64,000 nucleotides of DNA from Chitinispirillaceae bacterium. Its GTDB lineage: Bacteria > Fibrobacterota > Chitinivibrionia > Chitinivibrionales > Chitinispirillaceae. Below the pieces are notes generated by a model. The model did not search any database. It was given only the letters and a program-made list of their open reading frames with translations, and was not told the DNA's origin. Numbering within the stretch: the first letter of the stretch is position 1; every line of letters begins with the position of its first letter. Where the stretch lies: positions 953-64,952 of the forward strand of contig JAFGIW010000099.1 in NCBI GenBank assembly GCA_016929415.1. Direction: 5' to 3'. Shown piece after piece: positions 34,016 through 56,421 of the stretch. A program made the position numbers and the translations under genes.

Positions 34016-36115
34016 ATGAATCATTACCGTAAATGGCAAGGCGTCACCGTTGTCGGTACCATATTGCTGCTGTCCTCCGCGGGGCCGCTCCCCGGAGAAA
34101 CCGACTTGTCCGATGAAGGAACCGACATGAGTCTCGAGGACCTTGTCAACGTCACAATCACCGTGGCTTCAAAATCCGAGGAGAGCATCGCCGATGCACC
34201 GGGCGTCATTTCGGTAATTAATCAGGACGAGCTGAGACGGTTCGGCGGCACCACGCTTGGCGACATCCTCAAACGGGTCCCGAGCTTTATGGGAACCACG
34301 GTTTACATGACCGACCGCTCGGTCATTGCCTCCCGCGGCGACCAGATCATGGCCTCGTCGAGCCATGTGTTGCTGCTGATAAACGGCCGGCCTATGCGCG
34401 AAGTGCTTGAGGGCGGCATTAAAAGCGAGGTATACGAATCCTTTCCGGTAAGCGTCATCGAGCGGATCGAAGTGATCCGCGGCCCGGGATCGGTACTGTA
34501 CGGATCGCAGGCATTTTCGGCGGTCATCAACGTCGTCACCAAGAGTCCGGAAAACAGTGCGATATCGGTTTCAGGATCGCTGGGAGAGGGGCTGCATAAC
34601 AACGTCATGGCGGATTTTCAATATAGAATAGGTGATTTCGGTATCGTACTTGCCGGACGGTATGCGGACAAGGGGGGGTGGGAAATGGACTGGGAGGCGC
34701 CCGGACTTTTGCCGGACAGTGTGCATCACATCGACATCTCCATTCCCGATTACGGGCCCGGCGCTTACGGGGAACTGAGTTTCAAGGATTTCCGCCTCAT
34801 GTGCGCCTATTATCAATGGACCAATCAACAGTATATTCCCGATTTCGAGTTTTTACACGATCTTCCCGACACAGTCCCCGGGAGTATAAAAGGCCATACC
34901 ACCGGATCGGCAATATGGAAAAAACTCTTCGGCGACCTTGGATACAGCCATACATTCGCCGATTGGTATACCACGAGCATGAATTTCACCTATACGCGAT
35001 CCTTGTTCGAAACGATTGAATGGCCGACGACCTTCAGGGATGCTTTCGAAATCATCGGTGAGTGGACAAACTTCTTTACTCCCATTGAAAATTTCAATAT
35101 CACGTTCGGCGGCGTCTGGGGATTCATGACCGGTACCGAACGGAATGCGAAAATAAAAACGGTTATTTTCAATGAGGGTCATAAACAGAACAACTTCTCC
35201 GGATACGGCCAAATCGATTACCGGTGGGGATGGTGCAAGGTTATCGGCGGCATACAGGCCAACAAGGTGAGAGTCAAGGACAGCACGGGCAATGTCGATA
35301 ATTTCAAAGCCGATTTCAACCCCCGCGGCGGACTGATTTTATATCCATTTGAACATGTCAATATCAAGGCCCTGTACAGCACGGCATACAGGGCGCCGAG
35401 CATCAATGAATTGTACCTGGATCATCCCGAAATGAAAGGGAAGACTATGGGTGTCATAAGCGATATGTGGACCGGGGACAAAACGAACAACGGCACCCTT
35501 AAGCCGGAAAAAGTGCATACGTTTGATGTGGGCGCCAACTATCAGGATGACAAGGTCCAGTTCGGCGTCAACGGATTCCACAGCCGTATGAAAAATCTTA
35601 TTTTTCAGGAACGAACCGGCAGATGGGTGAAACCTACGTATGAAAACATCAGCGAGGTTTCCATTTTCGGTCTTGAATGTGAAGGAAAATACTACCTCAC
35701 CAGGGAGTTTCTGTTCGAAGGCTCAATGCTTTATCAGCAAAGCAATGACGAGAACACCGGCGAAGACAATGTGACCCCTCTTCCCAATTTCAGCGCGAAG
35801 GGCGGCTTGAGTTACCAGGCGGACTTCGGCTTCACCATAAGCGCCTTCAACACCTTCCGGCAGGCGCTTGACCCGAAATACGATTCGGAACTGAATACAA
35901 CGACGAAGCATTTCAACATGACGAACCTGCACTGCAGCTATGATCTGAACAAGCTTTTCAAATGGCGGGCGGCCCAGGAACTCTCTCTTGTCCTGAATAT
36001 CGACAACCTTCTCGACGAGGAGGTCTGGCTTCCGGCTTGGGGGCTCGAGCGCGGGAGCACGATACCGTACAACCAGGGCAGGACGATTTACGGCGGTTTC
36101 AAGGTTGCGTTCTGA
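34016..36115 (+). CDS. TonB-dependent outer-membrane receptor (copy 1)
   Basis: Signal peptide; plug motifs DAPGVISVINQDELRRFGGTTLGDILKRVP and IERIEVIRGPGSVLYGSQA; barrel ending in a terminal aromatic (..YGGFKVAF). AAGGAG RBS. Confidence 0.9.
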   Translation: MNHYRKWQGVTVVGTILLLSSAGPLPGETDLSDEGTDMSLEDLVNVTITVASKSEESIADAPGVISVINQDELRRFGGTTLGDILKRVPSFMGTTVYMTDRSVIASRGDQIMASSSHVLLLINGRPMREVLEGGIKSEVYESFPVSVIERIEVIRGPGSVLYGSQAFSAVINVVTKSPENSAISVSGSLGEGLHNNVMADFQYRIGDFGIVLAGRYADKGGWEMDWEAPGLLPDSVHHIDISIPDYGPGAYGELSFKDFRLMCAYYQWTNQQYIPDFEFLHDLPDTVPGSIKGHTTGSAIWKKLFGDLGYSHTFADWYTTSMNFTYTRSLFETIEWPTTFRDAFEIIGEWTNFFTPIENFNITFGGVWGFMTGTERNAKIKTVIFNEGHKQNNFSGYGQIDYRWGWCKVIGGIQANKVRVKDSTGNVDNFKADFNPRGGLILYPFEHVNIKALYSTAYRAPSINELYLDHPEMKGKTMGVISDMWTGDKTNNGTLKPEKVHTFDVGANYQDDKVQFGVNGFHSRMKNLIFQERTGRWVKPTYENISEVSIFGLECEGKYYLTREFLFEGSMLYQQSNDENTGEDNVTPLPNFSAKGGLSYQADFGFTISAFNTFRQALDPKYDSELNTTTKHFNMTNLHCSYDLNKLFKWRAAQELSLVLNIDNLLDEEVWLPAWGLERGSTIPYNQGRTIYGGFKVAF

Positions 36116-36194
36116 AATGCGGCACGACGGTATGAATGACAATGTAAAGTCAAAGACGCGATACGGTTCGGCGATGGCAGGGGAGGCTTTTCTC

Positions 36195-37190
36195 ATGAGG
36201 CTTCGACGCGGTTTCCTCATGTGCGTATACCTTCTTGCCGTTTCAATCATTACGTATCCTGCTGCTCAGACTCTTTATCCGCTCCTGATCCTGTTACCGG
36301 ACGGCGAACTCTTCGAAGCGGCGAAAACCGGTCTGGAAAAGGAACTCAGAAGTGAATTCGCCATTTCGACAATGGAAGTCAACGATGCGACGAGGGTCGC
36401 CGATATCGATAAAAAAATCGCGTCGGTTGCGCCCCGTGCGGTTGTCCTCATGGGCAACAGTTCGATCCGTCTGTATGCCGGGTACGCCCATGACCACAGG
36501 GACGAGACCGCCTCCCTGCCGGTCGTTGCGATCCTTGCGCTTGACATCAAACGGGCGGTAGCCGACATCGGCGACGTCCACGCCATAGCCTATGAAACGC
36601 CGATGGTTACGGCGCTTGTCAATTTTCGCCGCGTCATCAACAAGCCGGTTGCGACCGTCGGAGTCGTCTATCGTGAAGCGTTCGAGGAGTTCGTGACGCA
36701 ACATACCGAGTATTGCAAAAAGGAAAAAATAGCCGTAAAAAGCATTTTGATCGGTGATGACGCCTCCTCGCACCAAAAAGAGATTTCCAAAGCGCTGAAA
36801 CAGCTGGTGAAAAAGGAGCGCGTCCAGGCTTTTTGGGTGCCCAACGACAATATTCTCCTCAAGCCGGAACTGCTCATGGAGGTGTGGCTTCCCCTCTTTT
36901 CTGCGCAGAAAGTGTCGGTCATCGTGGGGGTGGAGTCGCTGGTAAAACCGGAGCTGAATTTCGGGACCTTTGCCGTGATACCCGATCCTGTGGCCATGGG
37001 CGAGCAGGCTGCCGGCATGATTGCCGATCTGAAGGATGAAGACTGGAAGTTCGACAGCACCGTCGTCTACCCGGCGATTTCGATGTATTCGGTGCTCAAC
37101 CTGAAAAAAGCCGTTAGTGTTGCAGATGTTAAAAGCATTAACGTGAACGAGGTGACCCGGGTGCTTTCGGAGAAGAAGAAACAGCGGTAG
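36195..37190 (+). CDS. Periplasmic substrate-binding protein, ABC_sub_bind (PF04392)-like, with no adjacent permease or ATPase
   Basis: Signal peptide MRLRRGFLMCVYLLAVSIITYPAAQ, with GGGGAGG upstream of ATG 36195. Pattern VGVVYREAFEEF..QAFWVPNDNILL..VIVGVESLV..NFGTFAVIPDPVAMGEQAAGMI matches my recollection of that family and needs HMM confirmation. Confidence 0.6.
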   Translation: MRLRRGFLMCVYLLAVSIITYPAAQTLYPLLILLPDGELFEAAKTGLEKELRSEFAISTMEVNDATRVADIDKKIASVAPRAVVLMGNSSIRLYAGYAHDHRDETASLPVVAILALDIKRAVADIGDVHAIAYETPMVTALVNFRRVINKPVATVGVVYREAFEEFVTQHTEYCKKEKIAVKSILIGDDASSHQKEISKALKQLVKKERVQAFWVPNDNILLKPELLMEVWLPLFSAQKVSVIVGVESLVKPELNFGTFAVIPDPVAMGEQAAGMIADLKDEDWKFDSTVVYPAISMYSVLNLKKAVSVADVKSINVNEVTRVLSEKKKQR

Positions 37191-37229: not shown

Positions 37230-39347
37230 ATGACCCGCCATCCAGGGAATCAATGGATCAACGTCGCATGTCTGGCGCTTGCCCTGCCTTTCGGCGCAGC
37301 GGTTCTTGCCGAAAACAAGCTTCCGGACGAGACCGCCTATCTGAGCATCGACAGCAGCGTCGCTGTAGTTCTCACCTCCATCGCCTCCAAGAAAGAAGAG
37401 AAAATATCCGACGCGCCGGGAGTCATTTCGGTGGTCACGCAGGATGAACTGAAACGGTTCGGCGGCACCACGCTCGCCGACGTCCTCAAACGGGTTCCGA
37501 GTTTGCTGGGAACCACCGTCTATATGACCGACCGTTCGATGGTCGCCTCCCGCGGCGACCAGATATTGCCCTCGTCAAGCCATATACTGCTTCTGCTCAA
37601 CGGACGACCCATGCGTGAGGTGCTTGAAGGCGGTATTAAAAGCGAGGTATACGAATCCTTTCCGGTGAGCGTCATCGAACGGATCGAAGTCATCCGGGGG
37701 CCGGGATCGGTGCTCTACGGATCGCAGGCCATCTCCGCGGTCATCAATGTCATCACTAAAAGGCCGGAGAACAATACGGTATCGGTTTCCGGAGCACTGG
37801 GGGAGATGCTTCACAATTACATCATGGCGGACCTTCAATATAAATTCGGCGATTTCGGCGTGGTGCTCGCGGGGCGGTATGCGGACAAGGGAGGGTGGAA
37901 GATGGATTGGGAAGCGTTGTCAATTCCACCCTGGGCGCCGGACAACATTACCTTAGAAAAAACGGCCATTTCCATTCCTGATGACGGGCCCGGCGCCTAT
38001 GCGGAATTGAGCTTTAAAGATCTGCGCCTCATGTGTTCCTACAACCAGTGGGATAATCAGTCCTTTGTCCCGGATTATCAATGGTTCAGATATGATTCGA
38101 CGAAAGGAATTCACGACGTCACCGGCCGGGCCACCTGGAAAAAGCTTTTCGGTGATCTGGGGTACACGCTCAAGCCCGTTGAATGGTATAACACAAGCGT
38201 AAATGCAACCTATACGCACTCCTGGTTCGAGACGCAGGAGTATCCGCTGACTTTAAGAGATGCATTTGAAATAATCGGCGAATGGACGAATTTCTTCTCT
38301 CCGATGGAAAATTTCAACATTACACTGGGCGGCGTATGTGGATTCATGGCCGGATCTGAAGGAGACCCGCACAATGATACGATTGCCTATAACAGAGGTC
38401 GATACAATAAAGGCCATACACAGATCAACTTCTCCGGCTATACCCAGATCGATTACCGGTGGAAGTGGTGCAAGGTCATTGGCGGCATACAGGCCAATAA
38501 AGTGAGATGTAAAGACAGTTTGGACCATGTCGATAATTTCGACGTCGATTTCAATCCGCGCGTCGGCCTGATTTTCTATCCCTTGGAACATATAAATATC
38601 AAAACGCTCTTCAGCACCGCATACCGAGCACCGAGTATCAATGAACTTTATATGGATTTCATGACAATCAGCGGTAAAATGGTACACCGTGACGATCCGC
38701 ACTGGGGTTCGTGGCACGAATACAATCTCGATCCTGAAAAAGTCTATACCTTCGACGCGGGCGTTAATTATCAGGACGACAAGGCCCTGTTCGGTGTCAA
38801 CGGCTTCCACAGCCTAATGAAAAATCTCATCTATCAGTCGACCGATACGACCCGTTATACGATTTCGACCTGGGACAACCTCGGCGATATCAACATATTC
38901 GGCCTTGAGTGCGAAGGTAAATACTACCTTACGAAGGCGCTTCTCTTTGAAGGTTCCTTTCTCTACCAGCAGAGCGTGGACGAAAACACCGGCGAAAACA
39001 ACGTGACCCCGCTGTCCAATTTCAGTGCGAAGGGGGGCCTGAGTTATCGCTCGGAGTTCGGTCTCACGGTGAGCGCCTTTAACACCTTCCAGCAAGCGCT
39101 CGATCCGAAATACGGCTCGGATCTCAACAAAACGACCGGGTATTTCAACATAACGAATGTGCACTGCAGTTATGATTTGAACAGGTTCTTTAAGTTTACA
39201 GCGGCAAAGGAGCTCTCTCTTGTCCTGAACATCGACAACCTGCTCGACGAGGAGGTCTGGCTTCCGGCCTGGGGACTCAGACGAGGCAGCACGATCCCTT
39301 ACAACGAAGGTCGCACGATCTACGGCGGTTTCAAGGTGGCGTTCTGA
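37230..39347 (+). CDS. TonB-dependent outer-membrane receptor (copy 2, close paralog of copy 1)
   Basis: Shares long identical runs with 34016..36115 (GRPMREVLEGGIKSEVYESFPVSVIERIEVIRGPGSVLYGSQA; LSLVLNIDNLLDEEVWLPAWGL) and the same ..YGGFKVAF end. Confidence 0.9.
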   Translation: MTRHPGNQWINVACLALALPFGAAVLAENKLPDETAYLSIDSSVAVVLTSIASKKEEKISDAPGVISVVTQDELKRFGGTTLADVLKRVPSLLGTTVYMTDRSMVASRGDQILPSSSHILLLLNGRPMREVLEGGIKSEVYESFPVSVIERIEVIRGPGSVLYGSQAISAVINVITKRPENNTVSVSGALGEMLHNYIMADLQYKFGDFGVVLAGRYADKGGWKMDWEALSIPPWAPDNITLEKTAISIPDDGPGAYAELSFKDLRLMCSYNQWDNQSFVPDYQWFRYDSTKGIHDVTGRATWKKLFGDLGYTLKPVEWYNTSVNATYTHSWFETQEYPLTLRDAFEIIGEWTNFFSPMENFNITLGGVCGFMAGSEGDPHNDTIAYNRGRYNKGHTQINFSGYTQIDYRWKWCKVIGGIQANKVRCKDSLDHVDNFDVDFNPRVGLIFYPLEHINIKTLFSTAYRAPSINELYMDFMTISGKMVHRDDPHWGSWHEYNLDPEKVYTFDAGVNYQDDKALFGVNGFHSLMKNLIYQSTDTTRYTISTWDNLGDINIFGLECEGKYYLTKALLFEGSFLYQQSVDENTGENNVTPLSNFSAKGGLSYRSEFGLTVSAFNTFQQALDPKYGSDLNKTTGYFNITNVHCSYDLNRFFKFTAAKELSLVLNIDNLLDEEVWLPAWGLRRGSTIPYNEGRTIYGGFKVAF

Positions 39348-39599: not shown

Positions 39600-40478
39600 A
39601 TGAAAGAATGCACTGCGCAATTCGACTCGGTCGTGACGGAGAATGAATCGCTCAGGGGGATGGTGCACCACCTGAAGGAAACGCAGGGACAGTTGCTGCG
39701 AAGCGAGAAACTGGCCTCGATCGGAAGGCTCTCGGCCGGCATCGCCCATGAAATCAACAACCCTGTCGGATTCGTTTCCAGCAACAGCACGACGCTTCTC
39801 GGCTATATCAGCCGCATCAAGGAAATCCTGAAAATGTACCGGACGGGAATCAGGAAAGAAATTATTGAAAAAAGGGAAAAACAACTGAAAATCGAATTTA
39901 TCCTCGACGATATCGACAAGCTGATCATGGAGAACATCGAGGGACTCGCCCGGATCACCACCATCGTCAACAATCTCAAGAAATTTGCACATGACAGTCA
40001 ATCCGGGGAGTTCATCAATGCGGACATCAACGAGGGTATCCGCAGCGTGCTTGTACTCGTTAAGAACGAATCGAAGTACTATGCGGATATCATCACCGAT
40101 TTCGGGGATATCGGCCAGATACCCTGCACGATCAGCGAACTCAACCAGACGTTTCTCAACATCATCATGAATGCCATTCAGGCCATCAAAGAGCAGGAAA
40201 GGAAGGAAAAGGGGCTGATCACCATAAAAACATGGAAAGATGATGCATGGGCATACGTTGCCGTTACCGACGACGGCCCCGGCATTCCCGGGGAGATCCG
40301 CAAAAAAATCTTCAGTCCGTTTTTCACCACGAAACCTGAGGGTACCGGAACCGGTCTGGGTCTGAACATCTGCTACGAAATTGTCGTCGACAAACACGGC
40401 GGCGATATTCAGATTGACAGCCGTCCCGGCGCCGGGACGACCTTTACCGTCAAGTTGCCGCGTACCAGGGGCGAATAA
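39600..40478 (+). CDS. Cytoplasmic histidine kinase without recognisable input domain
   Basis: H-box [15 protein letters not shown]-box [10 protein letters not shown]1 DDGPGIP, G2 GTGTGLGL. Only ~40 aa of coiled coil precede the H-box, and there is no TM segment. Confidence 0.85.
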
Positions 40479-40479
40479 A

Positions 40480-41676
40480 ATGGCTGAAGCGATACTTTTT
40501 GTCGATGACGACCGGATGGTGCTCAATGCGCTTGAGCGCACCTTTTTCGAAACCGATTACCGTACGTTCTTTGCGCTCAATGCACATGATGCGTTCACGC
40601 TGCTCGAATCCGAAAAAACAGACATGGTCGTTTCGGATATCCGTATGTGGCCGGTATCGGGCTACGATTTTCTCAAGGAAGTGCGTGCGCGCTATCCGGC
40701 AATCATACGTCTGGTGCTCAGCGCCTATGGCGACCGGCAGATGATGACAAAAGTTATCTGCGAAGGAATCGCCAAGATTTTCATTCTCAAACCCTGGGAC
40801 AACCGGACATTCACCGGCCAGATCGACCACCTTTTCACCATGTACCGCTCGCTGGCGGATCTGCAGTCAAGCGGCATCATCTCCGCGGAAAAACAGCTGC
40901 CCGTACTTCCCGAACTCTATATCCGCATGGTGCGCATGATCGAGGAGGAACGAAGTCTGAAAGAGATTGCCGCCCTTATCGAAACCGATCCGTCCTGTAC
41001 GGTGAATGTTCTTAAACTTGTCAACTCGGCGTTCTACGGCCTGACCGTGGGCTCCGTGCACCAGGCGCTGGTCTATCTCGGCGTAGACTGCATAAAGGAT
41101 ATCGTGCTGGTTTCCGAACTCTTCAAGGCTGCGGCCGGATTGCCGCCCGAAGATGCGCGTGTACAGCTCAACCGGCATATGGTCGTCTCCAGCACGCTTC
41201 TGCACGGCCTTCATCAGCGCCTTCTCGCCGAACGCATTCCCGAAGAGTATTCGGCGACCGGACTGCTCGCCGATATCGGGAGGCTTATTCTGCTCGACCA
41301 GCGGCCGGAGATATACCGATCCATTATCGAACGGTATGTCAAGGAGCCGGCGCGCTCGCTTACCGAACTGGAGATGAACGCCGTCGGTTACTCGCACGCA
41401 CAGCTCGGCGCGCTCCTGCTCGATTGGTGGAACCTGCCGGCGTATCTGGTCGAGGCGTGCCTTTATCATCACGTGATTTCCTTCGCGGGGCGCACCCTGC
41501 CCCGGGAGATTATTGCCCTTATTCATATCGCCGACTGTTACGCATGGCGGATAGCGGAGGGTGTCGGTACCATGGCCATCGACAAGGAGGCCGTCGGCAG
41601 GTTCCCGATTACGGAAAAAGAACTCGACGACCACGTCGCATCGATTATAAACCGCGCCGATTCACCCAACCGATAA
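40480..41676 (+). CDS. Response regulator: REC + HDOD domain
   Basis: REC: AILFVDDDRMVLNAL..DMVVSDIRMWPVSGYDFL..LVLSAY..IFILKPWD. HDOD: LPVLPELYIRMVRMIEEERSLKEIAALIETDPSCTVNVLKLVNSAFYGL. The ATG at 40480 is 2 nt after the kinase stop; the track start at 40381 lies inside the kinase gene. Confidence 0.8.
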   Translation: MAEAILFVDDDRMVLNALERTFFETDYRTFFALNAHDAFTLLESEKTDMVVSDIRMWPVSGYDFLKEVRARYPAIIRLVLSAYGDRQMMTKVICEGIAKIFILKPWDNRTFTGQIDHLFTMYRSLADLQSSGIISAEKQLPVLPELYIRMVRMIEEERSLKEIAALIETDPSCTVNVLKLVNSAFYGLTVGSVHQALVYLGVDCIKDIVLVSELFKAAAGLPPEDARVQLNRHMVVSSTLLHGLHQRLLAERIPEEYSATGLLADIGRLILLDQRPEIYRSIIERYVKEPARSLTELEMNAVGYSHAQLGALLLDWWNLPAYLVEACLYHHVISFAGRTLPREIIALIHIADCYAWRIAEGVGTMAIDKEAVGRFPITEKELDDHVASIINRADSPNR

Positions 41677-42684: not shown

Positions 42685-44688
42685 ATGGAACCATCGATCA
42701 CTGTGCAGGTATTCGACCATGAAATGAAGGCCGCCGTCAAAGAACTTCCTCCCGGCTGTTCGATCGAGGCGGTGCGCCGTGCCCTCGCGCAGGAAAAAAT
42801 CACCTGCGGAATCCGTTGGGAGGCAATCAAGGACGCCATCGCCGGAGCCGATAAAAGCGGCCTCGTACTTACCAATGTCACCGTCGCTGTTGCCGAACAG
42901 ACGGCGCTGTCGGTCATGTACGGAAAAACGGGGCCGTGTTTTTCGGGTGAAGAGGTCGAACGGCAACGACACAACCTCACTGCCATCGGAAAAGCCATCC
43001 GCAATGGTGATGCCTCCGTTGCGCTTGCCGGCGGTGTATTCGTCAAAGCGGATGAAAATGCATTGACCGTCCGCATCGGCGGCCGGCGACGGAATGTTTA
43101 TGGCGAGGAAATCACCGTGTCCTTCAGCGAGGAGCCGTTTCCGCACGAACGGTGCCTGACGCAGAAATTACTTCCCGACGGGTATGACTTCATCGCAAAG
43201 GCCGCCGGATATCTGGTGATCAACGAGTCGGGCGCCTTCGATATCATCGACCCCTTCTTCACCTCCGCCGACCGTTTGACGCTTTTCTGCCTGATACTCC
43301 CGCTCATTTACGGCAAGGAATCGTTCATCGAAAAGGTCGCGCGCACCGTCTCCGAGGCGCCGCCCGACGGCGCTTTCCTCAAAGCAATCATGGCTGAAAA
43401 CCGTCTGCAGAGACTCGAACTGCGCAGGGGTCGTCCTCCCGTTGCCGGACGTCCCGGATCGGTTGTCTTTTTAATCGCGCCGAACCCCGAATTGCCGGTG
43501 CAGACCCTTGACCGGATAGATTACCGCGATATCGGCCGGTTCCGTGAAGTCAACGAAGGCACGGTAATTGCCGAACAGGTTCCCATGATCCAGTCCGTCC
43601 CGGGAGTCGACGTCTTCGGCGAACCGATCAATATTGACAAAATGGAAGAAATCAATTTTACCTGCGGTGAGGGGATCGTCAAACAGTGCACGCCCGACCT
43701 GATACGGTACATCGCCCGGGAACGGGGCGTTCTGGAGCTCGACGACCACTACGTGAACGTGGCGCCGCAACTCACCATAAGCGGCGATGTCTGCAGCGAA
43801 ACCGGAAATATCGCCTACAGCCGCACGGTGGTCGTCAACGGCACGGTCTGCGCCGGTTTCCGTGTCGTCTGCGGGAATCTTACGGTGCGGGAAAGCATCG
43901 AAGACGGTGCGGAGATAGTCTGCAGCGGTCAATTGGTGGTGGGGAAAGGCATTTTCGGGGAGAGGACCAGGGTGACCGTTGCGGGTGACGCGAACATCGG
44001 GTTTATTCAGGGCGCCTCCCTGCGTGTTCAGGGCAATTGTACCATCGAAGAATACGCATACCATGCCCGGATCTTCTGCGGGGGAGTATTGCGCGTCAAT
44101 GGAAAGGGGCTGACGGGCAGGGAGAAAGGCTGCGTGATCGGCGGTGACCTAAGCAGCATGAAAACGCTTGACCTGCACTCCGCCGGTTCGACGGCGACGC
44201 TCACCACCCTGAGCTGCGGCTTCGATCCGGAAGGCTTCGAGACGTACAAGGAAACCGTCAACCTTGAAAAAACGCTCAAGAAAAAGGTCATTCAGTTGCA
44301 GAAACGGATTCATCTGAATCCGAATGAAAAACCGCTTTTACTTCAGCGGATTCAGAATGCGGGCGCCGAGCAGAAGGAGGCATTCAAGCAGACGCTTCAG
44401 GAATTGCGCGCCACCATCGCCCTTGCCGAAAAAGCCGGTGCGTCGGTTGCGCTCCTCGCCCGTAAAACAGTAGCCGTCGATATCACCCGGTCCAGAATCC
44501 TGATACGCAATCAGTTGATACCGCCGACGTTGATCGTATTTGTAAATATAAAGAAGAAAATCTACCGGGAATCCTTCGGCGTCCGGTTCGCCATGGGCGC
44601 CGATGAAATCATCATGCATGAAGGGCTTACCGCAATCAGCGACGATTGCGGCAATGCCACCGTACCCGAAGCGTCGGGACGGTCATGA
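42685..44688 (+). CDS. FapA / DUF342 family protein
   Basis: 667 aa. The central repetitive beta-helix-like stretch VVNGTVCAGFRVVCGNLTVRESIEDGAEIVCSGQLVVGKGIFGERTRVTVAGDANIGFIQGASLRVQGNCTI, followed by a coiled coil, matches my recollection of DUF342. Needs HMM confirmation. Confidence 0.6.
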   Translation: MEPSITVQVFDHEMKAAVKELPPGCSIEAVRRALAQEKITCGIRWEAIKDAIAGADKSGLVLTNVTVAVAEQTALSVMYGKTGPCFSGEEVERQRHNLTAIGKAIRNGDASVALAGGVFVKADENALTVRIGGRRRNVYGEEITVSFSEEPFPHERCLTQKLLPDGYDFIAKAAGYLVINESGAFDIIDPFFTSADRLTLFCLILPLIYGKESFIEKVARTVSEAPPDGAFLKAIMAENRLQRLELRRGRPPVAGRPGSVVFLIAPNPELPVQTLDRIDYRDIGRFREVNEGTVIAEQVPMIQSVPGVDVFGEPINIDKMEEINFTCGEGIVKQCTPDLIRYIARERGVLELDDHYVNVAPQLTISGDVCSETGNIAYSRTVVVNGTVCAGFRVVCGNLTVRESIEDGAEIVCSGQLVVGKGIFGERTRVTVAGDANIGFIQGASLRVQGNCTIEEYAYHARIFCGGVLRVNGKGLTGREKGCVIGGDLSSMKTLDLHSAGSTATLTTLSCGFDPEGFETYKETVNLEKTLKKKVIQLQKRIHLNPNEKPLLLQRIQNAGAEQKEAFKQTLQELRATIALAEKAGASVALLARKTVAVDITRSRILIRNQLIPPTLIVFVNIKKKIYRESFGVRFAMGADEIIMHEGLTAISDDCGNATVPEASGRS

Positions 44689-44764
44689 TGAACCGCTCCA
44701 CGGCGGCGTATTGCAGGTGTGCCTTCGCGCTGATGTGCTTTTCCGCCGGAAGGGGGGTACGGCA

Positions 44765-45271
44765 GTGATCACCGATGCATCTTCCAGCTATCTTAAGGCA
44801 TTTACACTGGTGTTCGCACAGAAAATGTGTCAGGCGCTCCTCGACATGTGCGGAGCGCATTTTTTAATCAATAAAGAATCGCTTCGGGAAGGAACCTTCT
44901 CGACACCCTATCGTATTACCCTGTTTGCCGGTTTTTCCGGCGCCATTCAGGGCAATTATATCGTATCGCTCGACGATACGGTTGCGTTGAAACTCATCGG
45001 TGCCGGCGATGAAACCGTATCACCCGGAAAGGCGCTTGATTTTCGTAAAGAATACGGCGGTTTTCTCAAGGAAGCGCTCAATATTGCCGTCGGTCAGGCA
45101 ATCGAAGCGCCGGGGAAAAGCTACGGCGACCTTGCCTATTCACCGGGTACGGCCGTATTCGGCGAAATTGAATTTCCTGATATCATGAGCGCAAGCATTG
45201 TGATCGAAGGCAGGGAGGGAAAGATACTGTGCGGTTTTTTCCTCAATCTGGCGAACCTTAAAACTTCATAA
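44765..45271 (+). CDS. CheX-like (CheC/CheX/FliY superfamily) putative CheY-P phosphatase
   Basis: ITLFAGFSGAIQGNYIVSLDD, and FLKEALNIAVGQA carrying the ExxNxxxG signature. Preferred start is GTG 44765, preceded by GGAAGGGGGG. The track start at 44603 lies inside the FapA gene. Confidence 0.55.
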   Translation: MITDASSSYLKAFTLVFAQKMCQALLDMCGAHFLINKESLREGTFSTPYRITLFAGFSGAIQGNYIVSLDDTVALKLIGAGDETVSPGKALDFRKEYGGFLKEALNIAVGQAIEAPGKSYGDLAYSPGTAVFGEIEFPDIMSASIVIEGREGKILCGFFLNLANLKTS

Positions 45272-45349: not shown

Positions 45350-47737
45350 ATGAAACGGTTCGTCAGTATACGAACAAAACTCATCTTCAACACCATGCTG
45401 CTGATTACGGCGGCATTCTCGATACTTCTTTCGGTCATCATTGTTTCAAACATCATTACCGTCCGTAAAAACAGCGAAAAATCAAAAACAAATATCCGCA
45501 CTTCTCTTTTGGCAAAAGGCAGAACACTCGCCCAAAACAACAGCATTGCGATGAGGGGAATGGCCGAAGATAATGCTTTCACCGCCATTCGCGATCTCGT
45601 TTCATCGACCGTTGCCGACGATGAGGACGTGGCGTATGGAATCTATATGGACCGGCAGATTATACCGTGGGTATATGCCACCCCGGATAACCCGAAAGGA
45701 ATTCCCCGGTCGAACAACCCCTTGGACGACTCGATTTCCCGATGGGCGGGATCGCTCGAACGACCCGCATTTATAGAGTATGCCGGCGGAAGGACCGCCA
45801 TTATCGAATTTGCAGCTCCGGTTTTTATCGATGATAAAATTCTCGGTCATATCCGTTACGGCATAAGTACCAATTCGATGGAACGATCGATTCGCGAAGT
45901 ACAGGCGGACGGGCGTGCGACACTCAAGCTGCTCATCCTGATCATCCTCTCGACAGGGCTTTTTTCCCTGATCGTGGGTTATGCGGTTGTCAGGCAGCTG
46001 TCGGCGCGGATCACCAGCCCCATCGGTTCCCTGGTAAGCTCGACGAAATCGATTGCCGAAGGCAACTATGACTTGGCCGTCAAACAGGAGAGCAATGATG
46101 AAATAGGCGACCTCGCCGGCCGCTTCGAGACGATGCGCCTAACCATCAAACAGTATACCGATCACCTGCAGGACCTCATCGATGAAAAGATGCGGCAGGT
46201 CAACGACATTCTCAACAATATCGAGCAAGGGCTCTTTACCATCAATCTCGACGGCTCCGTCAACAAAGAATACAGTGCACGCGCCAACTTGATCCTCAAG
46301 GTAAAGGATGTCGCCGCATGTTCCATCAGGGAGCTGTTGCGGTTCGATATGAAACAGGGGGCGGCCTTCCTTCTCTGGCTCGATCTCGTCCGGAAGTTGC
46401 ATAAACAGCAACGGTGGATCAAACTCGCGAAACTGGCACCGGTTCAGCAGATAGAACTGTTTGCCGCACCCGATACATTGGAGAAGAAGTATATCGCCGT
46501 TTCATACCAGCCCATCTGCGACAAGAAGGGCGACCTCGTAAAAGTCATGGTGCTTGCACTGGACGAAACCGAAAAACGGATGAAAGACCAGCAGATGGCC
46601 GCCGAGCGAATGCAACATGAGAGCGAGGTCAAGGCCATACTCAACATCGCCAATACGCCCGCCGAGGAGATCGCCGAATTTACCGAAGATACCTCAAGCC
46701 GCCTCCACGGACTTCGGGCCGAAATCGCGGGCCATCTTTACTGCGTGCGGCGACAGCGCGACAGTCATCCCGCCACACCCCTCTATAGCATCACCAAGGA
46801 GCACGTCGACCGGCTCTTTCGCGATCTGCACACCATCAAAGGCAACAGCGGATCGTACGGATTTGAAATGCTGTCATATTTCGCCCACGAGGCTGAGGAT
46901 CTGCTCGAAAAACTCCGGGAACCGATTCAGGAGCGCCGTGACAACATACTTCACGATATCAACGGACTGCTGGACAGCATGGACCAGTCGCTCGATGATA
47001 TCCACCGGAAGATCAAACTCATTTTCGGCAAGGATGAAGAGATCACGGTGCGCATCCCGGATGCACGAATCAACAACATCGTCGAACTGTGTAAACGCAT
47101 CGAATCGAAGGCGGATGATCCGGAGGTGAGGTCCCTTATCACCGAATGCATTATGCTTTCATGGAAACCGCTCAAGACACTTTTCAGAAAATACCAGAAA
47201 CTCGCCCATAAAACGGCGCGCAAGGTTAACAAGAACATAAATTTCATCATCAATAACGAGACAATGAGTTACCCGAACGACATTCTCGCGGGTCTGGACG
47301 ATGTGCTCATCCATCTGATCCGCAACGCGGTCGATCACGGCATCGAAGAGCCTGGCGTACGTGAAGAGGTGGGAAAAAGCGTCGGGCGGATACAGGTCTC
47401 CCTTGAATGCGGGGACGGAAACCGTATCATCTCCGTCGCCGACGACGGATGCGGTATCGATACCGACCGGGTGGTTGAACGTTGTATCGAAAAAAACATC
47501 ATTACCCGTGAGCAGGCAGGGCGACTTACCCGGGAAGAAAAAATAGGTCTTCTCTTCAAGGGGGGTATTTCAACCGCCGCAACAGTAACCGATATTTCGG
47601 GAAGAGGAATGGGGATGCAGATCATCCATAACAAGGTCGTTGAGCTGAAGGGGACCCTCTCCATCGATTCGCAACTCGGTAAAGGTACGACTTGTACCAT
47701 TTCGGTTCCTGTCGACAAAGAGAAACCACTTTTATGA
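45350..47737 (+). CDS. Sensor-fused CheA-like kinase: TM - periplasmic Cache-like domain - TM - HAMP - PAS-like - HPt(P1) - P3 - P4(HATPase); no P5/CheW domain
   Basis: TM1 LIFNTMLLITAAFSILLSVIIV; TM2 LKLLILIILSTGLFSLIVGYAVV; HAMP ITSPIGSLVSSTKSIAEGNYDLAV..NDEIGDLAGRFETM; HPt DLHTIKGNSGSYGFEML. The CheA-type P4 is LIHLIRNAVDHGIEEP..VADDGCGID..VTDISGRGMGMQII..GKGTTCTISVP. The protein ends 10 aa after the P4 motif. Confidence 0.75.
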   Translation: MKRFVSIRTKLIFNTMLLITAAFSILLSVIIVSNIITVRKNSEKSKTNIRTSLLAKGRTLAQNNSIAMRGMAEDNAFTAIRDLVSSTVADDEDVAYGIYMDRQIIPWVYATPDNPKGIPRSNNPLDDSISRWAGSLERPAFIEYAGGRTAIIEFAAPVFIDDKILGHIRYGISTNSMERSIREVQADGRATLKLLILIILSTGLFSLIVGYAVVRQLSARITSPIGSLVSSTKSIAEGNYDLAVKQESNDEIGDLAGRFETMRLTIKQYTDHLQDLIDEKMRQVNDILNNIEQGLFTINLDGSVNKEYSARANLILKVKDVAACSIRELLRFDMKQGAAFLLWLDLVRKLHKQQRWIKLAKLAPVQQIELFAAPDTLEKKYIAVSYQPICDKKGDLVKVMVLALDETEKRMKDQQMAAERMQHESEVKAILNIANTPAEEIAEFTEDTSSRLHGLRAEIAGHLYCVRRQRDSHPATPLYSITKEHVDRLFRDLHTIKGNSGSYGFEMLSYFAHEAEDLLEKLREPIQERRDNILHDINGLLDSMDQSLDDIHRKIKLIFGKDEEITVRIPDARINNIVELCKRIESKADDPEVRSLITECIMLSWKPLKTLFRKYQKLAHKTARKVNKNINFIINNETMSYPNDILAGLDDVLIHLIRNAVDHGIEEPGVREEVGKSVGRIQVSLECGDGNRIISVADDGCGIDTDRVVERCIEKNIITREQAGRLTREEKIGLLFKGGISTAATVTDISGRGMGMQIIHNKVVELKGTLSIDSQLGKGTTCTISVPVDKEKPLL

Positions 47738-47790: not shown

Positions 47791-48171
47791 ATGGGAAGAA
47801 CCGTCGTGATTGTCGATGATTCAAAATTCCTCAGCAAGCAGGTTGTTGAATTTTTTGAAGAGCAACTAGGGTTTACCGTGTGCGCGACCGGTTACGACGG
47901 CAATGAAGCGATTGCCTTGTATCGCAGGCATCAGCCTGATCTTATCACGCTCGACATCACCATGCCGAATAAAACGGGCGCCGAGGCAATGAAGGAGATT
48001 CTTCGAGAATTTCCCGATGCAAACATTCTGATGATCTCGGCGGTACGGGGAGAGGCGATGCTTGAATGCATGAACCGCGGAGCGAAGGGATATATTGAGA
48101 AACCTCTAAAATTCAACGATTCCGCCTTTATCGACGATTTCAAGGAGACGATCCGCGAGATTTTCGGATGA
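47791..48171 (+). CDS. Single-domain CheY-like response regulator
   Basis: MGRTVVIVDDSKFL..PDLITLDITMPNKTG..ILMISAVRG..GAKGYIEKPL. AAAGGAG RBS upstream of ATG 47791. Confidence 0.85.
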   Translation: MGRTVVIVDDSKFLSKQVVEFFEEQLGFTVCATGYDGNEAIALYRRHQPDLITLDITMPNKTGAEAMKEILREFPDANILMISAVRGEAMLECMNRGAKGYIEKPLKFNDSAFIDDFKETIREIFG

Positions 48172-48188: not shown

Positions 48189-48590
48189 TTACTTCGGCGG
48201 TTCGCGGACGCCGACCGCTTCATTGACCGTTTCAATAAAATCGGCCACGAAATCACCATTGGAAAGCCGGAGCGGCTTTTCAATATATCCTTTGGCACCC
48301 ATCGACAGGCATTGCAGTATGGCGTCGCCGCGTATCGCGGAAATGATGAGCACATTGGCATCCGGGAACTCGTCCAGCAGCTCCTTGAGTACATCCTGGC
48401 CGTTTTTGTTCGGCATTGATAGATCGAGCGTGAGCAGGTCGGGCTTGAATTTACGGTAAAGGTTGAGCGCATCGGTTCCGTCCAGAGCCGTTGCAATGAT
48501 CTTGAAATGGAGCCGGTCGATGAAAAAACGCTCAAGCAGGCCGATGATGTATTTCGAATCGTCGATAATGATAACACTTTTTTCACTCAT
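48189..48590 (-). CDS. Single-domain CheY-like response regulator (paralog of 47791..48171)
   Basis: SVIIIDDSKYI..PDLLTLDLSMPNKNG..VLIISAIRG..GAKGYIEKPL. Confidence 0.85.
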   Translation of the reverse strand: MSEKSVIIIDDSKYIIGLLERFFIDRLHFKIIATALDGTDALNLYRKFKPDLLTLDLSMPNKNGQDVLKELLDEFPDANVLIISAIRGDAILQCLSMGAKGYIEKPLRLSNGDFVADFIETVNEAVGVREPPK

Positions 48591-51987: not shown

Positions 51988-52983
51988 TTATTTCAATTTT
52001 TTGTCAATGCTCTTGAGTTTCTCGTCGGAAACAGTAAATCTCTTTTTCGCCTGCAAGAGGTTGATTATTTTGTAGACCGCAAGCGGCGGGTCGACGCGAT
52101 GTTCTTCACACACCCAGTTGTTGTCCTTTATTTCATAGACCATTCCCGCAGCCTGGCTTCCCAGCGCGACATGGTCGGGGAGCACGGCGAAAGTACCGAA
52201 ATTCAGTTTCGGATTTACCAGCACTTCAACGCCGACAATCACCGGCACCTTATATTTCTGGGTTGCGGGCATCCAAACCCTCCTGATGATGTTCGCTTGC
52301 AGGAGTGCGTTGTCGTTGGGCACCCAGAGTGCATCGATCCCGCGGCTATCGAGTCCCTTGAGGGCGTTCTTGATCAGCGGTCCGTATGCATTGCTTTTAT
52401 CCGGTAAAGCCTTATTGACGATTTCGATTCCTTCGCGTTTACAGAATTGACTGTTTTTTTCCACAAAATCCATTAAAAACTCCCGGTGAACGACGCCGAC
52501 CTTTTTTATCGGTATCCCCAGGACGGAACGCAGGCTGACGACGCTGGTGACGATGGGCACCTCATAGGAGATTCCGCAGGCGTTTTTCAAATCGGCGATG
52601 GCCTCTTTGATCATTACTCCCATGATCGCGATCGAAGGAATCATCGTTGCCGTTTCAGGGAGTGTCGATTGATACTTTCTGAACAGAGCGATCGCAGCGT
52701 TATCCATAAGGACCACAAGCTTCGGTTGATGCGAATGGATCAATTCGGTAAACTCATTGACAGAGCATTTCTTGTCGATGATACGCTCCCTCACTTCAAA
52801 GTCACCGCGCAGTTCATCCTTTAAACCGCGGAACGCATCTTCGAAATCCTTCCCCTCCTGTCGGAAGGTCAAAATGACCTCGGCGGCGACAGCCGTACCA
52901 ATGTTCATGAAGATCATGAATAAAGCAATTACTTGGACTTTAATCGTTCCCGGTTGACGTCCCGTACGTTTGATTACTTCCAT
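51988..52983 (-). CDS. Periplasmic substrate-binding protein, PF04392-like (paralog of 36195..37190)
   Basis: VGVVHREFLMDF..DALWVPNDNALL..VIVGVEVLV..NFGTFAVLPDHVALGSQAAGMV parallels the other copy. The hydrophobic N-terminus is IKVQVIALFMIFMNIGTAVAA. Start taken at ATG 52983. Confidence 0.6.
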   Translation of the reverse strand: MEVIKRTGRQPGTIKVQVIALFMIFMNIGTAVAAEVILTFRQEGKDFEDAFRGLKDELRGDFEVRERIIDKKCSVNEFTELIHSHQPKLVVLMDNAAIALFRKYQSTLPETATMIPSIAIMGVMIKEAIADLKNACGISYEVPIVTSVVSLRSVLGIPIKKVGVVHREFLMDFVEKNSQFCKREGIEIVNKALPDKSNAYGPLIKNALKGLDSRGIDALWVPNDNALLQANIIRRVWMPATQKYKVPVIVGVEVLVNPKLNFGTFAVLPDHVALGSQAAGMVYEIKDNNWVCEEHRVDPPLAVYKIINLLQAKKRFTVSDEKLKSIDKKLK

Positions 52984-53669
52984 TGGTCCACCTCGAACAG
53001 CGCACAAAGTTTCTTGTCGGCTTTTTTAAGCGCGCCGACCGTTTTATCGGCATTTCCGTTGTTTTTCACGCCAAGTGCGATAATGCCTGTTGTAGCCCCG
53101 GAAAGGGGTTTAACGGTGAATTCCAGGTTTGACGTTGACCTGAAATAGTTGACAAACACATCTTCAACAAGAATAGCGTCGGCCATATTGAAGGTCAGCA
53201 GCGGCAACAGGTCTTCTATTTTGGTAACCCGCTTGAGTTTCGGCTCCGCGGGGAAAAAATGACCGATAAACGACTTCATTCCGGTCCTGCCCAGTACGTC
53301 GATCGCCCCTATCGTTGTCTGGGCGTTGACGGCTTTCGGATCGATCGGGGCGTTGATCGACATGATCACGTATGTTGCCCCGGTCTTTCCTTTCCTCACG
53401 CCGTTAAGTACAATGGTATAGTTGCCCATCTGCTCGATAAGCGCGGGTTTGCTCAGTACCGCGTCGGGAGGTTCAGCCGCGACCTTTTCACTCATATCGA
53501 TGCAACGGCCGAAGACGGTCACCGAAACGCCGTTGAAATGTTCCTGCATTTTCTCCTGAACCGTCTGTGGCCGTGCGGTGGTGGGATAAAAAACATAGAG
53601 CTTTTCCTGTGCGAACGTACTGCTTGCTGCAAAGATAAACCCCATGAATGCCGTTATTACGTATTTCAT
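52974..53669 (-). CDS. Secreted/periplasmic protein of unknown family (possibly a type-2 binding-protein fold)
   Basis: Signal peptide MKYVITAFMGFIFAASSTFAQE, followed by alternating beta/alpha-like sequence (LYVFYPTTARPQTVQEKMQEHFNGVSVTVFG..PDAVL). No motif I can name. Confidence 0.4.
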   Translation of the reverse strand: MKYVITAFMGFIFAASSTFAQEKLYVFYPTTARPQTVQEKMQEHFNGVSVTVFGRCIDMSEKVAAEPPDAVLSKPALIEQMGNYTIVLNGVRKGKTGATYVIMSINAPIDPKAVNAQTTIGAIDVLGRTGMKSFIGHFFPAEPKLKRVTKIEDLLPLLTFNMADAILVEDVFVNYFRSTSNLEFTVKPLSGATTGIIALGVKNNGNADKTVGALKKADKKLCALFEVDQWK

Positions 53670-53770
53670 TGCCGATACGCTGCCCATTCTTTACACAGAA
53701 CACATACTGATCGTTACCGCGTGCCGATCCGCGCTCCGTAAAACGGTTTGAGTATATAATCTCTTATCGT

Positions 53771-55888: not shown

Positions 55889-56421
55889 CGTTGCTGCCGC
55901 GCTTGTTCCGTTTTTTTCCCAATCTGCAGGCCGACCAGATTCAGGCACAGGCTGCATACTACCATGCCGCATTTTCCACTGATGAAACCGATACCCGAGA
56001 TATAGTCGGCGGAATGATACTCGCCGTAGATCCATGCCGGCGGCAGGAGCGTTAAAGCGCCGAAATTTCTCTCCAAATCTTCCAGTGAATGATGTGCACT
56101 GATGTTCATGGCTTCGCACATAAGACCGGAATAGGTGCCCCGATGGACAATAACGGCCGCGAGCGCAGCGCCATGAGGATAGACGGCGGCAATTTTCGAC
56201 GCGGTAATCTCATCGGTCGAAAAAATGAAATCGCCCTGAATCCGGCCGCTGAAATGGGATATGACCGTCAGGCCGTTCCGGAATGTCGGAGGGGTATTCA
56301 CCGGGCTCTTTTTGTCAATCATAAAATCGGCGTTTGCCATATCCTTTAATGTATGGCAAACGTTACGAATGAAGAGCGCCGTATTGGTTCGCAGAATCGT
56401 GTCCTGTTGTTCTTTCGTCAT
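55885..56421 (-). CDS. CheX-like domain protein (paralog of 44765..45271)
   Basis: LTVISHFSGRIQGDFIFSTDE and LMCEAMNISAHH (ExxN retained, Gly replaced by His). Ends ..CSLCLNL, like its paralog's ..CGFFLNL. Confidence 0.5.
   Translation of the reverse strand: MTKEQQDTILRTNTALFIRNVCHTLKDMANADFMIDKKSPVNTPPTFRNGLTVISHFSGRIQGDFIFSTDEITASKIAAVYPHGAALAAVIVHRGTYSGLMCEAMNISAHHSLEDLERNFGALTLLPPAWIYGEYHSADYISGIGFISGKCGMVVCSLCLNLVGLQIGKKTEQARQQR

Follow-up and report, generated by a model that had tools for sequence, protein, structure and literature searches.

A conserved gene module that joins a TonB-dependent receptor and two periplasmic proteins to a membrane kinase with a CheA-type core was found in a 64,000-nucleotide stretch of DNA (the window) from a Chitinispirillaceae bacterium (contig JAFGIW010000099.1, positions 953 to 64,952). 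The module lies between positions 34016 and 56421 of the window, where genes for uptake receptors, binding proteins and chemotaxis-type signalling proteins form a plus arm and a minus arm. The conserved unit consists of the kinase (45350-47737) together with the minus-arm CheX-like protein, CheY, a 231-aa periplasmic protein (PERI), a PF04392-like periplasmic binding protein (PBP_C) and an 857-aa TonB-dependent receptor (TBDR_C), and it is this unit, not the mirror-image arrangement of the two arms, that recurs in other genomes. Our preferred reading, to which we assign a probability of about 0.6 on the basis of gene linkage and protein fold, is that the module carries out binding-protein-mediated sensing behind an outer-membrane gate and feeds a CheA-type relay that is independent of receptor arrays. 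An initial annotation of this DNA had proposed that the receptors and binding proteins are the front end of a CheA-type phosphorelay. The linkage and the lack of ATP-binding cassette (ABC) transporter genes agree with that proposal, but the partners of the kinase lie in the other arm and the kinase is not a CheA, and the import and hand-off of the ligand are something that we infer.

The evidence for the module comes from gene neighbourhoods. Full-length orthologs of the kinase, at 36-81% identity, were found in Chitinispirillaceae, Chitinivibrio, Fibrobacter, Desulfobacterales and Candidatus Parabeggiatoa, and the loci that encode them contain a recurring gene set that is usually on a single strand. 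When these neighbourhoods were searched by tblastn with the window proteins, the neighbours were called as orthologs of the kinase, CheX168, the kinase-adjacent CheY, PERI, PBP_C and TBDR_C (names as in Table 1), which identifies the minus-arm genes as the conserved partners of the kinase. The receptor-binding protein-receptor set in the kinase's own arm is not one of these partners. In Chitinivibrio (locus L001) the order is kinase, a 158-aa protein, a receiver (REC) protein, a 232-aa protein and a 322-aa protein. In Candidatus Parabeggiatoa (L003/L004) it is kinase, REC, a 239-aa protein, a protein with a weak PF04392 match and a TonB-dependent receptor, and in Fibrobacter (L086) it is receptor, a 173-aa protein, REC, a 235-aa protein, a 324-aa protein and kinase. 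Relatives among the Chitinispirillaceae (L087, L171) encode a soluble Hpt kinase, the membrane kinase, two CheX-like proteins of ~160 aa, REC, PERI, the binding protein and an 855-aa receptor. Binding proteins therefore adjoin the kinase orthologs in Fibrobacter, Chitinivibrio, Chitinispirillaceae and Candidatus Parabeggiatoa, and a TonB-dependent receptor does so as well in three of these four. No methyl-accepting chemotaxis protein (MCP) or CheW gene was found beside the kinase orthologs in L001, L003, L085, L086, L087 and L171. The Desulfococcaceae locus (L085) has only CheX, kinase and CheY, with no PERI, binding protein or receptor within reach.

The module was also surveyed from the side of the binding proteins. 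A scan with the binding-protein alignment gave 80 metagenome loci, each of which was searched with all 17 window proteins. Loci L005-L084, from a separate scan of genome contigs with the kinase alignment, are ordinary CheAs retrieved through the generic CheA motif RNAVDHGIE and were left out. PERI adjoins the PF04392-like protein in 41 of the 47 metagenome loci that have enough flank to be assessed, and the two genes overlap by 4-22 nt in every locus with gene calls, which is suggestive of translational coupling and perhaps of a complex. Where at least 3 kb of flank is available on each side (24 loci), a TonB-dependent receptor is present in 19, often less than 200 bp away (binomial P<1e-6 even if 30% of such loci are assumed to have one by chance), and the N-terminal sensor region of the kinase (residues 1 to ~285, comprising a transmembrane (TM) segment, the periplasmic domain, a second TM segment and HAMP) is present in 14. 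A receptor and/or a sensor-region protein is found in 21 of the 24, and the linkage between receptor or binding-protein genes and kinase, CheY and CheX genes, a weak point that the initial annotation had itself raised, is kept across phyla. The sensor region often starts 28-62 nt past the binding-protein gene and is joined in the metagenome loci either to a CheA-like core or to a classical HisKA-HATPase core. The binding proteins are not encoded next to ABC transporters, a finding that would have counted against the initial annotation: ABC ATPases were found in only 2 of the 80 loci and at least 4 kb from the binding protein; the ABC ATPase pattern was checked on NosF as a positive control, and a stricter pattern that missed NosF gave the same two loci. 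Contigs of equal size are common to at least 13 kinase homologs and binding-protein homologs. In cultured gammaproteobacteria the pair is encoded beside membrane kinases, which in Thalassomonas (L168) is a kinase with HATPase_c and in Pleionea (L169) a HAMP-GAF-Hpt-HATPase protein.

The positions of the 17 open reading frames (ORFs) agree with the initial annotation, including the convergence of the plus and minus arms at 48171/48189, and the starts of four of them were corrected (the kinase to 45350, CheY to 47791, REC-HDOD to 40480 and the minus-arm HDOD protein to 55885, giving 704 aa and not 782). The motifs quoted there as common to paralogs of both arms are present in the sequences, and the pairwise paralogy between the arms, with an HDOD protein in each, is seen in BLASTP identities of 38% for PBP_A and PBP_C, 52% for the two CheYs, 30% for CheX222 and CheX178 and 26% for the two HDOD proteins; TBDR_A and TBDR_B are 68% identical. 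The strong terminator described in the minus arm is also recognizable (Table 1). Most of the domain calls pass the Pfam threshold, the exceptions including PF04392 and all three CheX-like proteins. Family scans gave zero matches to MCP, CheW, CheB, CheR, ABC permease/ATPase or TonB/ExbBD among the main ORFs of the window, as had been claimed.

The description of the two arms as mirror images is appropriate for their gene content but not at the level of the DNA, as there is no inverted duplication and the related loci L094, L087 and L171 are collinear on one strand. An inverted duplication was considered as the origin of the mirror and rejected: only one inverted repeat joins paralogs of the two arms, a stretch of 138 nt (70%) within the binding-protein genes, and both copies of a second pair (33 nt, 73%) are in the minus arm. 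The tandem duplication that gave TBDR_A and TBDR_B is in direct orientation and brackets PBP_A (34161-35941 versus 37378-39173, six blocks, 72-81% nucleotide identity). The metagenome contig L094 carries on one strand the genes for REC-HDOD, REC303, FapA, a CheX-kinase fusion, the kinase, two CheX168 proteins, CheY, PERI, the binding protein and the receptor. The convergent layout of the window is a local rearrangement of an L094-like collinear operon to which a paralogous receptor-binding protein-receptor set has been added. Parts of the minus arm are repeated in the same order elsewhere, with PERI, binding protein, receptor, CheX and CheY in L089 and CheX178, HDOD, PERI and binding protein in L092.

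Table 1. Genes and the terminator-like element of the signalling region, in window coordinates (TBDR, TonB-dependent receptor; PBP, periplasmic binding protein; HMM values are E-values).
Feature	Coordinates	Strand	Evidence and remarks
TBDR_A, TonB-dependent receptor, 699 aa	34016..36115	+	Pfam Plug 5e-18, TonB_dep_Rec_b-barrel 3e-33; first gene of the A-type front end
PBP_A, PF04392-like periplasmic binding protein	36105..37190	+	NCBIfam TrpX 2.3e-6 over residues 159-337
TBDR_B, receptor, 705 aa, tandem duplicate of TBDR_A	37230..39347	+	Pfam Plug and barrel
Soluble classical histidine kinase, 292 aa, coiled coil, no sensor domain	39600..40478	+	HATPase_c 1e-27; HisKA 0.0012 (sub-threshold); H-box AHEINNP
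REC-HDOD response regulator	40480..41676	+	Response_reg 1e-16, HDOD 2e-39; starts 2 nt after the stop of the 292-aa kinase
REC303, REC plus uncharacterised ~180-aa C-terminal region, 303 aa	41758..42669	+	Response_reg 2e-19; 44% full-length ortholog in L094
FapA/DUF342 protein, 667 aa	42685..44688	+	FapA 1e-33, FapA_N 1e-22; 37% ortholog at the same position in L094
CheX222, CheX-like type 2	44603..45271	+	Pfam CheX 0.002 (sub-gathering); domain in ~last 168 aa
Membrane sensor kinase, 795 aa	45350..47737	+	TM, single-Cache, TM, HAMP, PAS-like, Hpt (P1), CheA-type catalytic (P4); without P2 and P5
CheY-type single-domain response regulator, 126 aa, conserved partner of the kinase	47791..48171	+	Response_reg 5e-22
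Second CheY paralog, 133 aa (CheY133)	48189..48590	-	Response_reg 1e-19; after CheX168, as in L089
CheX168, CheX-like type 1, ~167 aa	48630..49136	-	Pfam CheX 0.08; hhalign to type 2, probability 83.5%, E 8e-6
Terminator-like hairpin	49287-49266	-	9-bp stem with 7 GC pairs, then a T-run, TTGTTTTTTC; between TBDR_C and the CheX168-CheY133 pair
TBDR_C, TonB-dependent receptor with divergent barrel, 857 aa	49316..51889	-	Pfam Plug 3e-16 only
PBP_C, PF04392-like periplasmic binding protein, 331 aa with signal peptide	51988..52983	-	NCBIfam TrpX 1.1e-7
PERI, periplasmic protein, 231 aa	52974..53669	-	AlphaFold2 model with type II binding-protein fold, pLDDT 92.2, pTM 0.85
Pseudo-receiver, HDOD and uncharacterised C-terminal half, 704 aa	53771..55885	-	HDOD 4e-43; 56% ortholog in the same order in L092
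CheX178, CheX-like type 2, 178 aa	55885..56421	-	Pfam CheX 0.011; stop overlaps HDOD start; 61% ortholog upstream of the HDOD gene in L092

A Chitinispirillaceae metagenome-assembled genome (MAG) from the phylum Fibrobacterota encodes a protein with 100% identity to the kinase. Pfam detects HAMP, Hpt (1.8e-9) and HATPase_c in the kinase and sCache_3_2 only at 0.007, and two NCBIfam CheA models match it, CheA_Halo at 3.5e-58 and another at 4.7e-39. A profile of the kinase aligns to residues 36-107 (P1) and 311-507 (the end of P3, then P4) of Escherichia coli CheA and matches the P4 chains of E. coli and Thermotoga maritima CheA in the Protein Data Bank (PDB) at E 1e-60. The residue H494 in the sequence HTIKG (motif H-[ST]-I-K-G), the N box and the G1 and G2 boxes are invariant in 25 orthologs. 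Pfam gives no H-kinase_dim match for P3, and the alignment to T. maritima CheA begins ~25 residues before P4 (query position 581 versus 605). A CheW-like P5 domain was not found by Pfam; the protein ends 7-8 residues past P4, and its alignment to 1B3Q and 6S1K does not extend past the P4/P5 boundary. In a survey of CheA architectures every CheA (100%) had a CheW-like domain, which serves there as the defining feature of CheA, and CheA is described as having no sensor domain (PMC10782961). Because this domain defines the CheAs and the kinase stops before it, the protein is CheA-like and not a CheA. The "CheA kinase" of the initial annotation was thus correct in its Hpt/P1 and CheA-type P4 domains but not in its family membership.

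The periplasmic domain of the kinase (AlphaFold2 model of residues 30-200, pLDDT 92.6) is predicted to adopt a single-Cache/PDC fold, with a long N-terminal helix and a PAS-like sheet between the two TM segments. In Foldseek its best match is WalK, followed by CitA, DcuS and KinD, and DctB was also matched. WalK is controlled by accessory extracytoplasmic proteins. The sensor domain was found in 287 proteins in a search of 1.8 billion representative proteins. Pfam was run on 68 of 112 sensor-domain proteins and found HAMP in 67, HATPase_c in 60, Hpt in 27, HisKA in 17, REC in 10, SpoIIE in 5 and MCPsignal in 1; since the domain is joined to such varied outputs, it is a portable input module. 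The Desulfococcaceae HSG8 ortholog of the kinase (L085, 10001-12880) is a 959-aa protein that ends in a fused type 1 CheX-like domain, at the place of P5 in CheA. In L170 (8001-9965) the Cache sensor domain is carried by a HAMP-PAS-SpoIIE phosphatase that is encoded beside an MCP gene, and PERI and binding-protein genes are missing from the neighbourhood.

TBDR_C is the receptor of the conserved module, as its full-length orthologs (39-65% identity) are found beside the module in L086, L087, L089, L091, L094 and L171. The NCBIfam receptor models match only the plug region of this protein, and its length fits a barrel although the barrel model does not match. The three receptor calls of the initial annotation are therefore supported by a Plug domain in all three proteins and by a barrel in two, the barrel model being silent on the 857-aa receptor. 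None of the three has an N-terminal signalling extension, as Pfam shows only Plug and barrel domains.

PERI has no sequence-family match in Pfam or NCBIfam, and a profile search of PDB sequences gave only chance matches, so that its identity is taken from the fold prediction. Foldseek matches to the model at probability 1.0 (E 1.6e-10 to 1.7e-7) include 7T1M, the BvgS VFT2 domain, PtxB, PhnD, AioX, ArrX and XAC2383. Of these, 7T1M is a sterol-binding protein, and AioX, ArrX and XAC2383 are signalling binding proteins. In total the model has 800 PDB matches at E<=1e-3, with TMq values of 0.55-0.71 to 7T1M, 3MPL, 5O2J, 6ESK and 5UB7. The model thus predicts PERI to be a second binding protein with a PhnD/AioX/BvgS-like fold, which refines its earlier designation as a periplasmic protein. 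PERI is regarded as the obligate partner of the PF04392-like protein. The start of the PBP_C gene overlaps the stop of the PERI gene by 10 nt, and the corresponding genes overlap likewise in L001, L086 and L087. PBP_C has 409 homologs, a minority of which carry PF04392 on record, and its profile matches 3LFT weakly. The NCBIfam TrpX model, which describes a PF04392-type binding protein, matches both PBP_A and PBP_C over the C-terminal half only. The PF04392-like designation of the initial annotation is supported by the TrpX match, the homologs with PF04392 and the weak match to 3LFT, but not by the Pfam model itself, and is weaker than was stated there. In Pleionea sp. (L169, 10001-13952) the PERI/binding-protein pair adjoins a gene for an LPMO_10/GbpA chitin-binding protein, near flagellar export genes. 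This neighbour, together with the chitin- or cellulose-degrading hosts, is a hint of a polysaccharide-derived ligand.

The kinase-adjacent CheY retains the acidic pocket, the phospho-acceptor D54 and the GAKGYIEKP switch region. Its orthologs in the kinase loci of other phyla are 56-73% identical, with, as a rule, zero to two CheX-like genes between them and the kinase. The three CheX-like proteins of the window score below the Pfam gathering threshold, so that the earlier calls do not stand on Pfam, but profile evidence and the catalytic E-x2-N, which all three keep, rescue them. For type 2, a profile that includes CheX178 matches the CheX structures 1XKO from T. maritima (7.6e-7) and 3HZH from Borrelia burgdorferi (2.5e-4), and E102 and N105, invariant in the type 2 alignment, are aligned to the ELGN catalytic motif of CheX. 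In the type 1 alignment G96, E97 and N100 are invariant and D93 and P124 are present in at least 90% of the proteins, giving the motif D-x3-E-x2-N-x23-P. A profile of type 1 gave only chance matches to PDB sequences, and the identification of this type is therefore based on hhalign, in which the E-x2-N motifs of the two types are aligned. Type 1 genes lie between kinase and CheY in L001, L087, L091, L093, L094, L103, L110 and L171; in L086 the neighbours are the receptor and CheY. The placement of the CheX222 start within its ORF is uncertain. In relatives the type 2 domain is the N-terminus of a soluble PAS-Hpt-HATPase kinase encoded at the position of CheX222. N-terminal fusions of type 2 to SpoIIE (PP2C), GGDEF, PAS-Hpt-HATPase and HisKA-type modules are present in L003 (7014-8300), L086 (3657-4682), L087 (7885-9999) and L110 (~7405-8800). 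These fusions suggest an input domain that reads phosphorylated CheY (CheY~P).

Several further regulators are encoded around the module. In L094 the REC303, FapA and kinase genes are preceded by an ortholog of the REC-HDOD gene. In the minus-arm HDOD protein the REC matches are weak and a Glu is found at the phospho-acceptor position. For this protein a 782-aa frame was rejected, as a stop codon interrupts the upstream 78 codons in the L092 ortholog; the ATG at 55885 shares one base with the CheX178 stop, which makes it the most likely start of a ~704-aa protein that is translationally coupled to CheX178. Conservation of the HDOD, REC and FapA proteins is limited to close relatives (L092, L094), and these proteins may form a local output layer.

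The receptor-binding protein-receptor set of the plus arm belongs to a different type. Binding proteins of the PBP_A type account for 11 of the 80 related loci, and TBDR_A orthologs (59-63%) precede PBP_A orthologs in L133-L143. The true start of PBP_A is probably downstream of the TTG at 36105. Elsewhere in metagenomes this A-type set consists of TBDR_A, PBP_A and a PERI-like gene that face a gene for a DUF4388 protein of ~800 aa, which may be an alternative transducer for the set. The latter protein (L138, 11745-14135; L142, 11867-14278) has a weakly binding-protein-like N-terminal region, an SH3_3-like segment and a C-terminal DUF4388 domain. The PERI-like gene of the related A-type loci is in the place occupied by TBDR_B in the window.

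Directly upstream of the signalling region (17913-33427) is a large cluster for polysaccharide or exopolysaccharide (EPS) synthesis and export. It encodes a heptosyltransferase, a Wzy_C ligase-like protein, two GNVR/AAA_31 tyrosine-kinase-like proteins, a Poly_export/SLBB protein, GT4 and GT2 glycosyltransferases, a PIG-L protein and a MinD/ParA-like ATPase. The adjacency of this cluster to the module may be coincidental because neither L087 nor L171 has this flank beside the module. Further to the left, the window encodes a GAF-ANTAR protein (7053-8081), a 1087-aa fusion of PPDK_N and a nucleotidyltransferase (8100-11363) and a sigma-54 two-component pair made up of an NtrC-type regulator (13446-14792) and a kinase (14789-16087).

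Taken together, the linkage and the folds suggest the following path for the signal. TBDR_C would admit or bind the ligand at the outer membrane. PERI and the PF04392-like protein, a pair with no transporter of its own, would then bind the ligand, dock on the single-Cache domain of the kinase and report their occupancy. The signal would pass through HAMP and the PAS-like region to the CheA-type P1/P4 core, where the conserved catalytic motifs predict autophosphorylation on H494. As the kinase has no P5 domain, no MCP/CheW array would be involved. The phosphoryl group would be passed from the kinase to the highly conserved CheY-type regulator, and the CheX-like proteins with E-x2-N would dephosphorylate it, which would reset CheY. 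The type 2 CheX domain, given its observed fusions, is probably also a docking module for CheY~P that may couple the relay to further outputs. The HDOD, REC and FapA proteins would probably act downstream of the relay or in parallel with it.

A number of observations weigh against this reading. Every functional claim made here is drawn from gene linkage and fold. An MCP/CheW set and a TonB system may be encoded elsewhere in the genome, beyond the 64 kb of the window. The sensor domain may sense alone, because it is found without the binding-protein pair in L085 and L170. The receptor is frequent but not universal, as the module has none next to it in L001 (Chitinivibrio), L168 (Thalassomonas) and L169 (Pleionea). 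The plus-arm set has neither its own PERI nor a dedicated transducer in the window, which has one PERI and one Cache-type sensor in total. Finally, the Pfam PF04392 model does not match PBP_A or PBP_C even at E<=10.

Alternative explanations have to be considered in this light. A trans-envelope partner switch that works without import, like YfiB-YfiR-YfiN or Fec, would have the occupied receptor capture or release binding-protein-fold regulators that hold the kinase on or off. The three tiers of an outer-membrane protein, soluble periplasmic proteins and an inner-membrane transducer fit sequestration equally well, and the best structural match of the sensor, WalK, is regulated by accessory proteins and not by a small ligand. 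Additionally, partial matches were obtained to NF053590 and NF053592, NCBIfam models for an analogous set of receptor, YfiR-like protein and kinase. We nevertheless regard a partner switch as unlikely, since the three receptors lack the signalling extension, both soluble proteins have the complete two-lobe folds or lengths that are typical of ligand binders, and the module occurs without an adjacent receptor in several genomes (L001, L168 and L169, as above). It is also conceivable that the Cache domain binds the ligand directly, as CitA and DcuS do, two single-Cache proteins that bind small ligands and are among the fold matches, and its occurrence in L085 and L170 would agree with this. The receptor and binding proteins would then be a co-regulated or target route for uptake or scavenging of the same compound. 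That route would be incomplete, however, as there is no inner-membrane transporter beside the binding proteins in 78 of the 80 loci. PERI, the binding protein and the sensor stay adjacent while the output is swapped between CheA-like and HisKA, which points to the sensor domain as the partner of the two proteins. Pfam detected no DNA-binding output domain in the response regulators of the module and both CheYs are single-domain receivers, so the pathway has no obvious transcriptional arm for the uptake genes, and direct sensing appears to us about equally unlikely.

A chance juxtaposition in a MAG of nutrient-uptake genes and unrelated two-component or chemotaxis-like genes would account for the patchwork look of the window, with its convergent arms, duplicated genes and a terminator inside the minus arm, and for the linkage of the A-type receptor-binding protein set to different genes elsewhere. 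The same gene set is nevertheless found in at least four distant lineages and in dozens of metagenome contigs with its order kept and its genes overlapping, and because of this conserved linkage the explanation is extremely improbable and can be regarded as effectively excluded. Binding-protein-mediated sensing that feeds an array-independent CheA-type relay thus remains the reading that we prefer.

Sensors that depend on a binding protein include LuxP-LuxQ, TorT-TorS, ChvE-VirA, AioX-AioS, CBP-ChiS and XAC2383-XAC2382. As in systems of the LuxPQ, TorTS and AioXS type, the module has a soluble protein of binding-protein fold whose gene adjoins that of a membrane transducer without a link to an ABC importer, an arrangement that is conserved in 14 of the 24 well-flanked loci with differing output modules, and its transducer has a periplasmic domain of the PAS/Cache type. 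Unlike those systems, the module has two binding proteins (one type II and one PF04392-like) from overlapping genes, it is frequently linked to a TonB-dependent receptor, its kinase core in this subfamily is CheA-type (Hpt and P4) and not HisKA/DHp, and its partners are CheY and CheX and not a DNA-binding regulator. With CheA the window kinase shares the Hpt phospho-histidine motif, the P4 domain and, as predicted partners, a CheY-type receiver and a CheX-type phosphatase; it differs in the absence of P2 and P5, in having its own TM-Cache-TM-HAMP-PAS input and in the lack of MCP, CheW, CheB and CheR genes nearby. The PF04392/COG2984 proteins (TrpX, 3LFT; "ABC-type uncharacterized transport system") show a distant similarity in the C-terminal lobe and some homologs of the module's binding proteins pass PF04392, but the latter have no ABC permease/ATPase partner and the members in the window fail the Pfam model.

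TonB-dependent receptors are coupled to regulation in FecA-FecR-FecI and in Sus-like pairs, where SusC is found with hybrid two-component systems. The module resembles these in that an outer-membrane TonB-dependent receptor is genetically coupled to a signalling protein of the cytoplasmic membrane; it differs in that its receptors have no N-terminal signalling domain, there is no sigma/anti-sigma pair and soluble binding proteins are placed between receptor and sensor. The CheX-like proteins resemble CheX, CheC and FliY, as type 2 matches 1XKO and 3HZH with its catalytic Glu and Asn in register and type 1 retains D-x3-E-x2-N and the Pro after it, but the window proteins are sub-gathering in Pfam and type 1 is only remotely related. 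Fusions of CheC/CheX to CheA are known in Leptospira, and the survey of CheA architectures reports CheC/CheX fusions to CheA only (PMC10782961). In contrast to these, kinases, PP2C phosphatases and a GGDEF protein carry the type 2 domain at their N-terminus.

The principles involved are each known singly: sensing through a binding protein, the linkage of TonB-dependent receptors to regulators, and phosphotransfer between CheA, CheY and CheX. What appears to be undescribed is their combination, with two binding proteins and a receptor alongside a P5-less CheA-type kinase that is fused to a sensor, and with CheX modules on other outputs. Full-text literature searches (PF04392 with TonB, P5-less or transmembrane CheA, XAC2383, receptor with binding protein and kinase, Fibrobacter chemotaxis) found no description of the module, although most subscription journals were outside their coverage and this is no proof of absence. 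The homologs are labelled only "hypothetical protein", "HAMP domain-containing protein" or with generic kinase names. More speculatively, and in our view possible but rather doubtful, the module may represent an array-independent chemosensory pathway in which a transmembrane CheA core is gated by an outer-membrane receptor and heterodimeric binding proteins, and in which CheY~P is read by CheX-fold fusions on diguanylate cyclases, PP2C phosphatases and kinases, leading to second-messenger or partner-switch outputs, including in the non-flagellated Fibrobacter.

The CheA catalytic core is not known to work outside MCP/CheW arrays. A family found in several phyla that has swapped P5 for its own Cache-HAMP input would represent a second evolutionary route for CheA-type kinases and would be simpler to study than an array. 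The fusions of CheX domains point to outputs of CheY~P beyond the flagellar motor. The module also offers a testable function for several hundred homologs of the 231-aa and PF04392-like families that are unnamed or annotated as hypothetical. The path from an outer-membrane receptor through two binding proteins to a sensor suggests the detection of compounds that are too large or too scarce for diffusion through porins, which would bear on how polymer-degrading and sediment bacteria, among them Fibrobacterota, Desulfobacterales and relatives of Beggiatoa, detect their substrates.

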